64,000 nucleotides of DNA, from NCBI RefSeq assembly GCF_009931435.1, contig NZ_CP043414.1; one strand, given 5' to 3'. This document shows, piece by piece, positions 3,068 to 43,542 of this stretch (positions are counted from its first letter, which is position 1; every line of letters starts with the position of its first letter). Source of the DNA: Escherichia coli (GTDB lineage: Bacteria > Pseudomonadota > Gammaproteobacteria > Enterobacterales > Enterobacteriaceae). Made by a program: the position numbers and the translations under genes. The notes beneath the pieces were generated by a model. That model was not told the DNA's origin, searched no databases, and saw only the letters and a program-made list of their open reading frames with translations.

Positions 3068-3155
3068 GGTGAGGTGTCCGAGTGGCTGAAGGAGCACGCC
3101 TGGAAAGTGTGTATACGGCAACGTATCGGGGGTTCGAATCCCCCCCTCACCGCCA
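3068..3155 (+). tRNA. serW: tRNA-Ser (anticodon GGA), long variable arm
   Basis: 88-nt sequence GGTGAGGTGTCCGAGTGGCTGAAGGAGCACGCCTGGAAAGTG...GGTTCGAATCCCCCCCTCACCGCCA with anticodon loop CUGGAAA and class II extra arm; encoded CCA end. Confidence 0.92.
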
Positions 3156-3206: not shown

Positions 3207-3286
3207 CTGCCTGTACGGCAGTGAACGGTATAAAAATCGAGTTTTTCTTTCGGTTGGCTTTCTAAGCTGCCTGTACGGCAGTGAAC
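3207..3286. repeat. two copies of a 20-bp motif ctgcctgtacggcagtgaac (internal palindrome CTGCC-GTAC-GGCAG) spaced 60 bp
   Basis: exact direct repeat at 3207..3226 and 3267..3286, read directly from sequence. Confidence 0.7.
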
Positions 3287-3498
3287 TCAAATACTACACG
3301 TTTAGCTCGTTGTTAATAAAGAAAAATCATCTCATTTTCCTGCTGCCACCCTTTTTTATTCTTACCTTCCAGCACCATTAATTATCAACAACTTACCTTC
3401 ACCTCCAAAAATAGGGTTTTCACCATTCCACCCTACAAATAAAAAGTCCGTAACCCCTGACGAGATTACGGACTTCACAAACCTACCTAACAATCAGA

Positions 3499-12566: not shown

Positions 12567-12991
12567 ATCCCCTCCAGAAATATGTGACTTATCCTTTACG
12601 CTGGCAGTATAACGGGAAAGGCCGTGCTAATACGTGATGACATCACATTTAAGCATGGCAAATGTCTGAAAAATGAGCGAATAATCGCGTTATACTCCCT
12701 CTTGCTGATAAGTCTGCAAAAACAACAAAATCAAATAATTAGCATGATAAATTATTTTTTATTACGCCTAAAGGATTAAATCTTTTGCTTGCACTACACT
12801 GTCAATCAGACAAATGACTATATGGGGCAACCCGCTGTTGCCCTAAATCAAATTTACTGGATTTATTTATCTGGTGAATGACTCGCCTTCGTTTTTAAAA
12901 TAGCCGCGCATTATTTCCGTCGTCACTTTTTTACGACGACCCTATAAAACGACCATATTTTTCACAGGGTCAATTTTTAATTGAGGTGGAT

Positions 12992-13788: not shown

Positions 13789-13990
13789 GCAGGGGGCGGC
13801 CAATCGCCGCCGCCCCCTGCACCCCCGGGCTCTGGCGAACAAAATCGCCGCTGCGCGGTGCCCTCGACTTATCCCTTGCGGCTACCGGGTCGGGCGCGAG
13901 GTAACATCCCGGTAAAACGCGCCCTCAGCCCACATCCATGTGGGCTGCCCCGGCCTTCAGGGAACACCTCGGCGATTTTGACGCCACCAA
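13789..13990. repeat. GC-rich intergenic element with nested palindromes
   Basis: perfect 12-bp inverted arms gcagggggcggc / gccgccccctgc (13789..13820); 8-bp palindrome gcccacat/atgtgggc (13928..13945); outer inverted arms caaaatcgccg (13840..13850) / cggcgattttg (13970..13980). Confidence 0.5.
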
Positions 13991-14160
13991 CACCGGTGCG
14001 GTTTGTAATTAAAGCGCAAGAATATCTTTAAATGAAAATGAATACCCTACCGATCCTTATGCATAACATTTCCTTTTAATTGCAACTTTACTCGTCCTTC
14101 CGCTTTCAGTAGTGTGTCATCGCGCATTTCGACTTCTTTCTTTGCAAGGACTGGTTTTTC

Positions 14161-15060
14161 ATGTTTTCTGGGCTGTTAATCATTCTGGTTCCCCTGATTG
14201 TGGGTTACCTCATTCCGCTTCGCCAAAAAGCTGCATTAAAAGTTATTAATCAGCTATTAAGTTGGATGGTTTACCTCATTCTCTTTTTTATGGGTATCAG
14301 TCTGGCGTTTCTCGATAACCTCGCCAGTAACCTGTTGGCGATTCTGCATTATTCCGCCGTCAGTATTACCGTTATTTTACTGTGTAATATTGCCGCCCTG
14401 ATGTGGCTGGAGCGAGGCCTACCGTGGCGCAACCACCATCAGCAAGAAAAACTCCCGTCACGTATTGCGATGGCGCTGGAGTCCCTCAAGCTCTGCGGTG
14501 TGGTGGTGATTGGCTTTGCTATTGGCCTTAGCGGATTAGGTTTCTTACAACACGCTACGGAAGCCAGCGAATACACGTTAATTCTGCTACTTTTCCTCGT
14601 CGGTATTCAGTTGCGCAATAATGGCATGACCTTAAAGCAGATTGTCCTTAATCGCCGGGGAATGATTGTCGCTGTGGTGGTGGTGGCCAGTTCTTTAATT
14701 GGTGGTTTAATTAACGCCTTTATTCTTGATCTTCCCATCAATACCGCGCTGGCAATGGCTTCCGGTTTCGGCTGGTATTCTCTTTCCGGTATTTTATTGA
14801 CCGAATCTTTTGGTCCGGTAATCGGGAGCGCGGCGTTTTTTAATGATCTGGCCCGTGAGCTGCTTGCTATTATGTTGATCCCTGGGCTGATTCGCCGTAG
14901 CCGCTCTACTGCACTGGGCTTATGCGGTGCGACGTCGATGGATTTCACACTGCCCGTTCTTCAACGTACTGGCGGACTGGATATGGTCCCGGCGGCGATT
15001 GTTCACGGTTTTATTCTTAGCCTGTTAGTGCCGATCCTCATCGCCTTTTTCTCTGCATAA
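14161..15060 (+). CDS. lysO: lysine exporter LysO (YbjE), inner membrane protein
   Basis: 299-aa hydrophobic ORF with ATG at 14161; synteny between aqpZ and hcp. Confidence 0.85.
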   Translation: MFSGLLIILVPLIVGYLIPLRQKAALKVINQLLSWMVYLILFFMGISLAFLDNLASNLLAILHYSAVSITVILLCNIAALMWLERGLPWRNHHQQEKLPSRIAMALESLKLCGVVVIGFAIGLSGLGFLQHATEASEYTLILLLFLVGIQLRNNGMTLKQIVLNRRGMIVAVVVVASSLIGGLINAFILDLPINTALAMASGFGWYSLSGILLTESFGPVIGSAAFFNDLARELLAIMLIPGLIRRSRSTALGLCGATSMDFTLPVLQRTGGLDMVPAAIVHGFILSLLVPILIAFFSA

Positions 15061-15093
15061 TACCTCTCTGGCGGTAGATCCCTGCCGCCAAAA

Positions 15094-15107
15094 TTGCGCT
15101 AAATCAA
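15094..15107 (+). promoter_or_regulatory. FNR-like half-site pair upstream of hcp
   Basis: TTGCG-ctaa-ATCAA resembles FNR consensus TTGAT-N4-ATCAA (one perfect half-site). Confidence 0.35.
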
Positions 15108-15166
15108 TCTCCCTTAAAGTTGCATGAAAAATCCCTTTTATCCCCGCGTTAAGCGTCTTAACCTTA

Positions 15167-15189
15167 AACATGTATATTAAATATAACTT
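15167..15189 (+). promoter_or_regulatory. NsrR-like operator overlapping the hcp promoter
   Basis: AACATGTATAT-T-AAATATAACTT, an 11-1-11 AT-rich inverted repeat resembling the NsrR consensus, about 15 bp upstream of the hcp ATG. Confidence 0.45.
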
Positions 15190-15203
15190 TAAAAGGTGTG
15201 ATC

Positions 15204-16856
15204 ATGTTTTGTGTGCAATGTGAACAAACTATCCGTACTCCGGCAGGAAACGGCTGCTCATACGCGCAGGGGATGTGTGGTAAAACGGCGGAAACCTCTG
15301 ACCTTCAGGATTTACTCATCGCGGCGCTGCAAGGGCTTTCAGCCTGGGCGGTAAAAGCGCGTGAATACGGCATCATCAACCATGACGTTGACAGCTTCGC
15401 GCCGCGCGCATTTTTCTCAACCCTGACCAACGTTAATTTCGATTCTCCGCGTATTGTCGGCTACGCCCGTGAAGCAATTGCCCTGCGTGAGGCGCTGAAA
15501 GCACAGTGCCTGGCTGTAGATGCCAACGCCCGCGTCGATAACCCGATGGCTGACCTGCAACTGGTGAGTGACGATCTCGGCGAGCTGCAACGTCAGGCGG
15601 CGGAATTTACTCCCAATAAAGATAAAGCGGCGATTGGCGAAAACATTCTCGGCCTGCGTCTGCTCTGCCTGTATGGCCTGAAAGGTGCTGCCGCCTATAT
15701 GGAACACGCGCACGTTCTCGGTCAATATGACAACGATATTTACGCCCAGTACCATAAAATCATGGCATGGCTGGGTACCTGGCCTGCCGATATGAACGCA
15801 CTTCTCGAGTGCTCCATGGAAATCGGCCAGATGAACTTCAAAGTGATGAGCATTCTGGACGCAGGCGAAACAGGTAAATACGGTCACCCGACGCCAACTC
15901 AGGTCAACGTCAAAGCGACGGCGGGTAAATGCATTCTGATTTCCGGTCACGATCTCAAAGATCTCTACAACTTGCTGGAACAGACCGAAGGCACGGGTGT
16001 TAATGTCTACACCCACGGCGAAATGCTGCCTGCCCACGGCTACCCGGAGCTGCGTAAATTCAAGCATCTGGTCGGTAACTACGGCAGCGGCTGGCAGAAT
16101 CAGCAAGTAGAGTTCGCTCGCTTCCCTGGACCTATCGTGATGACCTCGAACTGCATCATCGACCCAACCGTAGGGGCTTATGACGATCGTATCTGGACCC
16201 GCAGCATCGTTGGCTGGCCGGGTGTGCGTCATCTGGATGGTGATGATTTCTCAGCAGTCATCGCCCAGGCGCAACAAATGGCGGGCTTCCCGTACAGCGA
16301 AATTCCGCACCTGATTACCGTGGGCTTTGGTCGTCAGACGCTGCTTGGCGCGGCGGATACGCTGATTGATCTGGTGAGCCGTGAAAAACTGCGTCATATC
16401 TTCCTGCTCGGTGGCTGTGACGGCGCACGCGGCGAGCGCCACTACTTCACCGATTTCGCCACCAGCGTACCAGATGACTGCCTGATCCTGACTCTCGCCT
16501 GCGGTAAATATCGCTTTAACAAACTTGAGTTCGGCGATATCGAAGGTCTGCCGCGTCTGGTAGATGCTGGTCAATGTAACGATGCTTACTCAGCGATTAT
16601 TCTGGCTGTCACTTTGGCAGAAAAACTGGGCTGCGGTGTCAACGATCTGCCGTTGTCGCTGGTACTCTCCTGGTTCGAACAAAAAGCGATTGTTATTCTG
16701 CTGACGCTGCTTTCTCTGGGCGTGAAAAATATCGTTACCGGCCCGACTGCACCTGGCTTCCTGACGCCAGACCTGCTGGCGGTACTGAACGAGAAATTCG
16801 GCCTACGTTCTATCACCACTGTTGAAGAAGACATGAAGCAACTGTTGAGCGCGTAA
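15204..16856 (+). CDS. hcp: hybrid-cluster protein (hydroxylamine reductase / NO-stress protein)
   Basis: 550-aa product from ATG 15204 (MFCVQCEQT...), N-terminal Cys cluster; ORF-track start 15198 is GTG. Confidence 0.93.
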
Positions 16857-16867
16857 GGAGTTTGTCG

Positions 16868-17836
16868 ATGACGATGCCAACCAATCAATGCCCGTGGCGG
16901 ATGCAGGTTCATCACATTACGCAAGAAACGCCGGATGTGTGGACGATTTCCCTGATTTGCCACGATTACTACCCGTATCGCGCCGGGCAATATGCGCTGG
17001 TCAGCGTGCGTAACTCAGCGGAAACGCTGCGTGCTTACACCATTTCCTCCACACCAGGCGTGAGTGATTACATCACTCTGACCGTGCGGCGGATTGATGA
17101 CGGTGTCGGTTCCCAGTGGCTGACCCGCGATGTAAAACGCGGTGACTACCTCTGGCTTTCGGACGCGATGGGGGAATTTACCTGCGACGATAAAGCAGAA
17201 GATAAATTCCTGTTGCTGGCGGCCGGCTGCGGCGTCACGCCGATTATGTCGATGCGTCGCTGGCTGGCGAAAAACCGTCCGCAGGCTGATGTGCAGGTGA
17301 TCTACAACGTGCGTACGCCGCAGGATGTCATTTTCGCGGATGAGTGGCGTAATTACCCGGTGACACTGGTGGCGGAAAATAATGTTACCGAGGGATTCGT
17401 TGCCGGACGCCTGACTCGCGAACTGCTGGCCCGCGTTCCTGATTTAGCCTCGCGTACTGTAATGACCTGTGGCCCGGCTCCGTATATGGATTGGGTAGAA
17501 CAGGAAGTGAAAGCGCTCGGCGTGACGCGTTTCTTTAAAGAGAAGTTCTTTACGCCAGTGGCGGAAGCAGCAACCAGCGGTCTGAAATTCACCAAACTGC
17601 AACCGGCGCAAGAATTTTACGCACCTGTTGGCACCACACTGCTGGAGGCTTTGGAAAGCAACAAAGTTCCGGTTGTCGCCGCCTGCCGTGCAGGTGTTTG
17701 CGGCTGCTGTAAGACGAAAGTGGTTTCCGGTGAATATACGGTGAGTAGCACAATGACGCTGACCGACGCCGAAATCGCAGAAGGTTATGTACTGGCCTGC
17801 TCCTGCCATCCGCAGGGGGATTTGGTTCTCGCATAA
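16868..17836 (+). CDS. hcr: NADH oxidoreductase for Hcp
   Basis: 322-aa product from ATG 16868 preceded by AAGGAG; C-terminal 2Fe-2S Cys cluster CRAGVCGCCKTKV. Confidence 0.9.
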   Translation: MTMPTNQCPWRMQVHHITQETPDVWTISLICHDYYPYRAGQYALVSVRNSAETLRAYTISSTPGVSDYITLTVRRIDDGVGSQWLTRDVKRGDYLWLSDAMGEFTCDDKAEDKFLLLAAGCGVTPIMSMRRWLAKNRPQADVQVIYNVRTPQDVIFADEWRNYPVTLVAENNVTEGFVAGRLTRELLARVPDLASRTVMTCGPAPYMDWVEQEVKALGVTRFFKEKFFTPVAEAATSGLKFTKLQPAQEFYAPVGTTLLEALESNKVPVVAACRAGVCGCCKTKVVSGEYTVSSTMTLTDAEIAEGYVLACSCHPQGDLVLA

Positions 17837-43368: not shown

Positions 43369-43411
43369 AACTGAAGTTGCCCTGAAAATGAAATTTTTTT
43401 GCACAACCGCA

Positions 43412-43444: not shown

Positions 43445-43523
43445 GCCACTGCTTTTCTTTGATGTCCCCATTTTGTGGAGCCCATCAACCCCGCCATTTT
43501 GGTTCAAGGTTGGTGGGTTTTTT
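43445..43523 (+). ncRNA. rybB: RybB small RNA (sigma-E-dependent, Hfq-binding)
   Basis: GCCACTGCTTTTCTTTGATGTCCCCATTTTGTGGAGCCCATCAACCCCGCCATTTTGGTTCAAGGTTGGTGGGTTTTTT matches recalled RybB including the terminator hairpin and U-tail; lies between ybjL and rcdA as expected. Confidence 0.88.
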
Positions 43524-43542
43524 GTTATCTAAAATTTATCTA

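Follow-up and report, generated by a model that had tools for sequence, protein, structure and literature searches.

The DNA between lysO and hcp is almost certainly a sigma-70 promoter that depends on an activator, serves the hcp-hcr operon and integrates oxygen and NO signals. The initial annotation had read this region as combining anaerobic activation with NO-responsive repression of the operon, and that reading is borne out by weight matrices for both factors, by the footprint of conservation in 85 species and by published ChIP-seq data on identical sequence. The FNR/NsrR architecture of the hcp-hcr promoter is already known in detail, both sites having been mapped experimentally before; Rodionov et al. 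(2005) had predicted the two after aligning the upstream regions of eight enterobacterial hcp genes. The present data concern the presence of both sites in this DNA, their scores, their conservation and their fixed geometry.

The lysO-hcp intergenic region

The 64-kb stretch of DNA analysed here (the window) carries lysO, hcp, hcr, poxB and ltaE on its plus strand, the same gene order as in E. coli K-12 but in the reverse orientation of b0874-b0870. Both the FNR-like and the NsrR-like box fall inside the 143-bp region separating lysO from hcp (15061-15203). The hcp start codon is the ATG at 15204-15206, 14 nt past the NsrR-like box. Coordinates of all features are collected in Table 1.

Comparison with E. 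coli K-12 MG1655 revealed no difference at any of the 143 positions, the regulatory DNA being base-for-base the same. Identity to K-12 is 92.8-95.2% for the genes on either side and 92.4% for the next intergenic region; against the 5.2% divergence of the flanking genes, a complete lack of mismatches in the intergenic region has a probability of about 5e-4. The segment free of differences measures 238 bp (15058-15295) and takes in the intergenic region together with the initial 92 bp of hcp. The intergenic region was found in 5424 of 5426 complete E. coli genomes. Identity of the window as such to K-12 is about 95%; E. albertii is more distant (92%), and two genomes labelled E. coli are closer (99%). 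Since the surrounding genes are so much less similar to K-12, the window derives from a more divergent Escherichia lineage. Both boxes are also identical in the window and in strain CFT073. Thus, with an intergenic region equal to that of K-12 and boxes equal to those of CFT073, the FNR and NsrR results published for these strains apply to the window. Neither fnr nor nsrR is found within the 64 kb, and their presence in this strain is assumed.

Table 1. Features of the hcp-hcr promoter region. Numbers in parentheses are relative to the inferred transcription start.
Feature	Position	Strand	Basis
lysO	14161-15060	+	Upstream neighbour of hcp
Candidate NarL/NarP 7-2-7 site TACCTCT-CT-GGCGGTA	15061-15076, centre 15068.5 (-104.5)	+	Heptamer match
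Stem-loop TGGCGGTAG-ATCC-CTGCCGCCA	15069-15090	+	Just after the lysO stop codon
FNR activator site TTGCG-CTAA-ATCAA (TTGCGCTAAATCAA)	15094-15107, centre 15100.5 (-72.5)		Matrix, conservation, published ChIP-seq
Conserved block AAGTTGCATGA-AAAATCCC	15117-15135	+	Left part is an NsrR-like 11-mer; function inferred
Probable -35 hexamer TTTTAT	15136-15141	+	17 bp upstream of -10; TTTTCA or TTTTTA in many relatives
Probable -10 hexamer TAACCT	15159-15164	+	Column conservation, fixed FNR spacing
NsrR operator, 11-1-11, AACATGTATAT-T-AAATATAACTT (23-mer AACATGTATATTAAATATAACTT)	15167-15189 (about -6 to +17)		Matrix, conservation, published ChIP-seq
Inferred transcription start, plus or minus 2 nt	15173	+	Published -72.5 and FNR centre 15100.5
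hcp	15204-16856	+	NCBIfam hydroxylamine reductase/hybrid-cluster protein, 815 bits, far above cut-off; RefSeq annotation
hcr	16868-17836	+	NCBIfam NADH oxidoreductase, 640 bits, far above cut-off; RefSeq annotation
hcp-hcr regulated operon	15204-17836	+	NCBIfam and RefSeq annotation

The NsrR operator

A matrix was derived from the 25 sites of the 11-1-11 type listed in Table 4 of the CFT073 NsrR study, leaving out the hcp site. Scored with this matrix, the 23-mer preceding hcp matches the AAGATGCATTT-N-AAATGCATCTT motif with 25.46 bits, which places it first among 63,978 positions of the window and above 23 of the 25 training sites. The per-position probability of this score is about 8e-10 and 5e-5 occurrences are expected per 64 kb; the match is far beyond chance. 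The AT-rich 11-1-11 element was present just upstream of hcp as the initial annotation had placed it. Its designation as an NsrR-like operator stood on account of the motif match, while the inverted repeat that had been cited for it turned out to be weak: only 7 of the 11 positions pair, a degree of pairing that 628 windows of the 64 kb equal. Symmetry by itself is therefore unremarkable and was rejected as evidence for NsrR.

Such weak symmetry, together with the AT-rich composition of the region and its overlap with the start point, could be accommodated if the 23-mer were simply AT-rich core-promoter or leader DNA, or the target of another Rrf2-family or nucleoid protein. (The box begins 3 nt past the conserved -10 hexamer, and its overlap with the start rests on the inferred position of the latter.) We regard this explanation as extremely improbable. 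Besides the rank and score of the 23-mer with the NsrR matrix, the way in which the sequence varies speaks against it: relatives alter the box yet retain 20-30 bits, and the only base that varies freely is the unspecified central one (48% conserved in the 85 Enterobacterales promoters described below, with 84% and 93% for the two arms). The location of the NsrR ChIP-seq summit and the strong derepression of hcp in nsrR mutants are further arguments for an NsrR operator.

In CFT073, the summit falls within the box, 22 nt before the hcp start, and nitrate induces hcp 43.7-fold (Mehta et al. 2015). In Table 4 of the same study the box of the window appears as its reverse complement, AAGTTATATTTAATATACATGTT, and ranks as the second-best 11-1-11 site, with ln(P) of -23.87 against a cut-off of -14.28; the top site is that of ytfE (AAGATGCATTTAAAATGCATCTT) and hmp comes sixth (Mehta et al. 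2015). The hcp promoter was also a target in ChIP-chip analysis of NsrR in K-12, hcp is up 284-fold in a Salmonella nsrR mutant, and a plasmid carrying Phcp::lacZ is a routine reporter of NsrR derepression by cytoplasmic NO. Occupancy of the box by NsrR and the NO- and nsrR-dependent derepression of hcp are thus taken from the literature on identical sequence, and presumably hold for the strain at hand.

The ytfE and hmp promoters carry the same class of 11-1-11 motif and, like hcp, are derepressed by NO or by deletion of nsrR. Compared with theirs, the hcp operator has a higher AT content and less symmetry, and reads TGTAT/ATATA where they have TGCAT. Moreover, hcp also requires class I activation by FNR from upstream, according to the FNR table of Myers et al. 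(2013).

Two further NsrR-like 23-mers were observed elsewhere in the window: ACATTTCCTTTTAATTGCAACTT (14066-14088; 15.2 bits), 73 nt upstream of the lysO ATG, and AAGTTGCCCTGAAAATGAAATTT (43374-43396; 16.8 bits), about 50 nt upstream of rybB. Their scores fall in the range of weak published NsrR sites.

Conservation of hcp promoters

A pattern scan of species-representative genomes with the conserved hcp 5' end yielded 120 loci. At least 250 bp of upstream sequence was available for 113; 84 were of the Enterobacterales type and, with the window added, made up the 85 promoters analysed. In this set the FNR box is the best conserved segment of the intergenic region, TTGCG, CTAA and ATCAA being 97%, 91% and 100% identical to the window, respectively; the spacer at 15140-15158 is only 35% conserved. 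Nearly all 85 promoters have an FNR-type box at about -108 to -118 and an NsrR-grade 23-mer (20-30 bits) at about -35 to -44 from the ATG. The centres of the two boxes are separated by 76.5-79.5 bp in most species, Rahnella having a larger distance (82.5-83.5 bp). At 77 of the 85 loci a TAnnnT hexamer occurs exactly 65 nt downstream of the position where the FNR box begins. This constant spacing ties the FNR site firmly to the core promoter; for the NsrR box, displacements of a few base pairs with respect to the -10 hexamer may occur.

Outside the Enterobacterales, the hcp promoters of Aeromonas (L008, L015, L030 and others) have a near-consensus FNR box (TTGATCTGCATCAA, 18.8 bits; 18.8-19.6 bits in the Aeromonas promoters of the sample) at the same distance from the ATG; at the start point they are without an NsrR-grade site (at most 13.8 bits). 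Most Shewanella loci (L032, L053 and others) give weaker matches to both matrices, and one (L061) has a consensus FNR box of 20.9 bits. The NO-sensing arm of hcp control appears to have been swapped or lost outside the Enterobacterales.

The FNR site

The motif TTGCG-N4-ATCAA that the initial annotation had reported upstream of hcp was found exactly where it had been placed. The term operator did not suit it, as the site is an activator site. For scoring, a matrix was built from the 62 ChIP-seq-bound sites of Table S6 in Myers et al. (2013), again without the hcp site. The box scores 13.19 bits, fifth in the window. This value lies in the lower part of the training range (11.8-21.1 bits), with 6 of the 62 training sites scoring lower. 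The box matches 8 of the 10 core bases of TTGAT-N4-ATCAA; ATCAA is a perfect half-site, and the match on sequence alone would have to be called weak, with a left half, TTGCG, that is non-consensus.

Could the box be a chance match, or a site for another member of the CRP/FNR family such as CRP, with the anaerobic control of hcp being indirect? The score is modest, four other positions of the window do at least as well, and the number of matches expected by chance at this score is about one for a sequence of this length (0.85-1.3 per 64 kb), although 0.002-0.005 for a 144-bp intergenic region. Sites with two mismatches to the FNR consensus are also frequent in the window (54 versus 36 expected). 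Taken alone, the box would fail a window-wide test of significance; the match is significant only given its position and conservation, and it is conservation and geometry that rescue the FNR call. The box surpasses all other intergenic segments in conservation across the 85 species and keeps a fixed distance from the -10 hexamer, its perfect right half is that of FNR and not the CRP half-site TCACA, and FNR occupancy as well as FNR-dependent expression have been reported on identical sequence (Myers et al. 2013). In the light of these data we give next to no credence to a chance or CRP-type site and conclude in favour of FNR.

The published evidence consists of the sequence TTGATTTAGCGCAA, the reverse complement of the box in the window, which is listed for hcp in Table S6 under an FNR ChIP-seq peak with ln(P) of -11.6 (cut-off -10.75), and of an entry in Table 1 that centres the FNR site of hcp at -72.5 and gives expression as FNR-dependent (Myers et al. 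2013). Binding of FNR and FNR-dependent anaerobic expression of hcp are taken from these studies of the identical K-12 sequence and would extend to the window. The initial annotation had suggested weight-matrix scans for the two factors; by the published values, neither site falls below threshold (-11.6 versus -10.75 for FNR; -23.87 versus -14.28 for NsrR).

In 77 of the 85 species the FNR site is centred 58.5 bp upstream of where the TAnnnT -10 hexamer begins, a class I-type spacing, upstream of -60. The TTGCG half and the CTAA spacer are nearly unchanged from Escherichia to Serratia and Pectobacterium. Such preservation of a non-consensus half and its spacer hints that selection, rather than drift, has kept the FNR site weak or has maintained one shared with another factor.

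The best match to the FNR matrix in the window is TTGCCCTAAATCAA (12838-12851), upstream of aqpZ (start at 12986). It corresponds to the aqpZ/ybjD FNR ChIP-seq site of Table S6 in Myers et al. (2013). A NarL-like 7-2-7 match is found near this box, at 12763-12778. The FNR boxes of hcp and aqpZ are one base apart; a longer repeat shared by the two was considered and rejected, since the flanks are unrelated.

Probable core promoter and transcription start

Adding the published distance of -72.5 to the FNR centre puts the transcription start at about 15173. With this start, the -10 hexamer TAACCT would occupy -14 to -9 and the -35 hexamer TTTTAT -37 to -32. The start is in agreement with a -10 element ending at 15164, yet the 8-nt gap after this element is unusually long. 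Conservation supports both hexamers. In the -10 element, T15159 is present in 85 of 85 loci, A15160 in 83 and T15164 in 77. The CTTTT run at 15135-15139 is invariant or nearly so (T15136, 85/85), and hexamers of the type TTTT(C/T/A)(A/T) occur 17 bp upstream of -10 across the 85 loci.

A simple scan of the interval 14950-15300 for sigma-70 promoters and terminators returned nothing. This outcome is expected because the promoter is activator-dependent, and the scan is uninformative in such a region. Myers et al. (2013) noted that a sigma-70 ChIP peak is absent from the hcp promoter in glucose minimal medium and cited a dependence on sigma-E. The latter was not traceable in the text or supplements of the paper that they cite, and inspection of the hcp promoter by eye revealed no element resembling GGAACTT-N16-TCAAA. 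We infer that repression by NsrR in NO-free medium could account for the missing sigma-70 peak, and do so more simply than sigma-E.

The segment between the FNR site and the -35 hexamer

The second-best match to the NsrR matrix in the window is the 23-mer AAGTTGCATGAAAAATCCCTTTT at 15117-15139 (17.7 bits, P about 5e-7; 0.03-0.05 expected per 64 kb), which is kept at a fixed offset from the FNR box. Its presence raises the question of whether hcp has two NsrR sites, the main operator and a second element that blocks the alpha-CTD and -35 contacts or cooperates with the main site. Besides the score, this is suggested by the CFT073 form of the 11-mer at 15117, AAGTTGCATTA, which is listed as a third NsrR motif under the hcp peak (Mehta et al. 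2015), and by scores of 19-22 bits at the same offset in Yersinia, Pectobacterium and Symbiopectobacterium. Against it, only 29 of the 85 species reach the score of the weakest training site at this position, the median being 5.8 bits, and two sites 50 bp apart are beyond the resolution of ChIP-seq. Furthermore, the best conserved columns of the block are T15120 (invariant, 85/85) and AAA at 15129-15131 (nearly invariant); the latter and CTTTT are explained equally well as an UP-like A-tract and the -35 hexamer. The A-tract (15127-15131) covers -46 to -42, where a proximal UP element or a contact with alpha-CTD would fall.

Part of the 15117-15139 segment is probably the -35 element plus an UP-like A-tract. 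Because so few species maintain an NsrR-grade score, and because the columns under the strongest constraint are those of the -35 and the A-tract, we consider an auxiliary NsrR site, and with it a two-site arrangement, rather unlikely. A broader conjecture, that either AAGTTGCAT (15117-15127) is an auxiliary NsrR half-site or the FNR box is tuned to be weak or shared with another factor, seems to us similarly doubtful. If AAGTTGCAT were such a site, NsrR would interfere directly with activation through FNR and alpha-CTD, at least in Escherichia, Yersinia and Pectobacterium.

The NarL/NarP candidate and the stem-loop

Sequences next to the lysO stop codon include a candidate 7-2-7 site for NarL/NarP. 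The left heptamer is a perfect match to TACYYMT and the right one matches at 5 of 7 positions; seven such sites occur in the window versus 2.7 expected, so that the match by itself is not significant. The candidate is conserved in Enterobacteriaceae, but its right heptamer overlaps the hairpin, which could explain the conservation of that heptamer. A 7-2-7 arrangement is described in the literature for hcp-hcr, which counts among the NarL/NarP targets. The NarL/NarP site of hcp was reportedly placed at -104.5 by Filenko in 2005 and by Chismon in 2010.

The stem-loop has a folding energy of -16.5 kcal/mol (z -3.7). Its arms are 71-73% conserved and its loop 21%, and it is present at 58 of the 85 loci, with switches between G.U and A-U pairs. 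It may belong to the lysO 3' end or serve another purpose. No U-tract was found after it, and an Rfam search of the lysO-hcp intergenic region returned no RNA family.

Other features of the window

Next to tRNA-Ser(GGA) (3068-3155), the minus strand at 3207-3287 seems to carry the remnant of a very small type I-F CRISPR array. GTTCACTGCCGTACAGGCAG occurs there twice, the copies being separated by about 41 nt; with a full I-F repeat of 28 nt this would leave a single spacer of about 32 nt. Rfam CRISPR-DR4 matches at 3259-3286. We take this remnant to resemble the vestigial CRISPR array between clpA and infA in E. coli. Matches at the Rfam gathering level were obtained for the sRNA RybB (43448-43526, 104.8 bits), naRNA4 (30694-30774, 75.9 bits) and ES036 (31731-31773, 38.8 bits). 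A very GC-rich, repeat-like segment occupies 13790-13990, between the aqpZ terminator and the lysO promoter.

Discussion

In enteric bacteria, Hcp serves as the high-affinity NO reductase under anaerobic conditions; hcp is also activated by OxyR-SNO. The hcp-hcr promoter of E. coli K-12 is said to have been studied by Filenko and colleagues in 2005 and 2007 and by Chismon and colleagues in 2010.

In the model that we favour, dimers of [4Fe-4S]-FNR would bind the imperfect box during anaerobiosis, about 72.5 bp upstream of the start, and activate the weak core promoter formed by TTTTAT and TAACCT through a class I mechanism. FNR would probably act by recruiting the C-terminal domain of the RNA polymerase alpha subunit to the A-rich stretch upstream of the -35 hexamer. 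[4Fe-4S]-NsrR bound to its operator would cover the start point and the early transcribed region; given the extent of the box relative to the start, the bound protein should occlude polymerase, blocking it sterically. NO would nitrosylate the NsrR cluster and so release NsrR from the operator, an established property of this repressor (Mehta et al. 2015, and work with the Phcp::lacZ reporter). Finally, the NarL/NarP candidate may add stimulation by nitrate or nitrite.

The same gene is governed by the same nitrogen-oxide-responsive logic in the hcp promoters controlled by HcpR, NorR2 or DNR (Rodionov et al. 2005). In those promoters the place of the NsrR repressor is taken by activators, either FNR-like ones (HcpR, DNR) or one of the sigma-54 class (NorR2).

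The hcp promoter is a standard reporter of cytoplasmic NO. The canonical, conserved FNR/NsrR architecture found here allows the promoter of this Escherichia lineage to be annotated with confidence, and adds no new biology. A quantitative by-product of the analysis is that across the Enterobacterales the FNR site keeps an invariant spacing to the -10 hexamer, whereas the position of the NsrR box can vary by a few base pairs.
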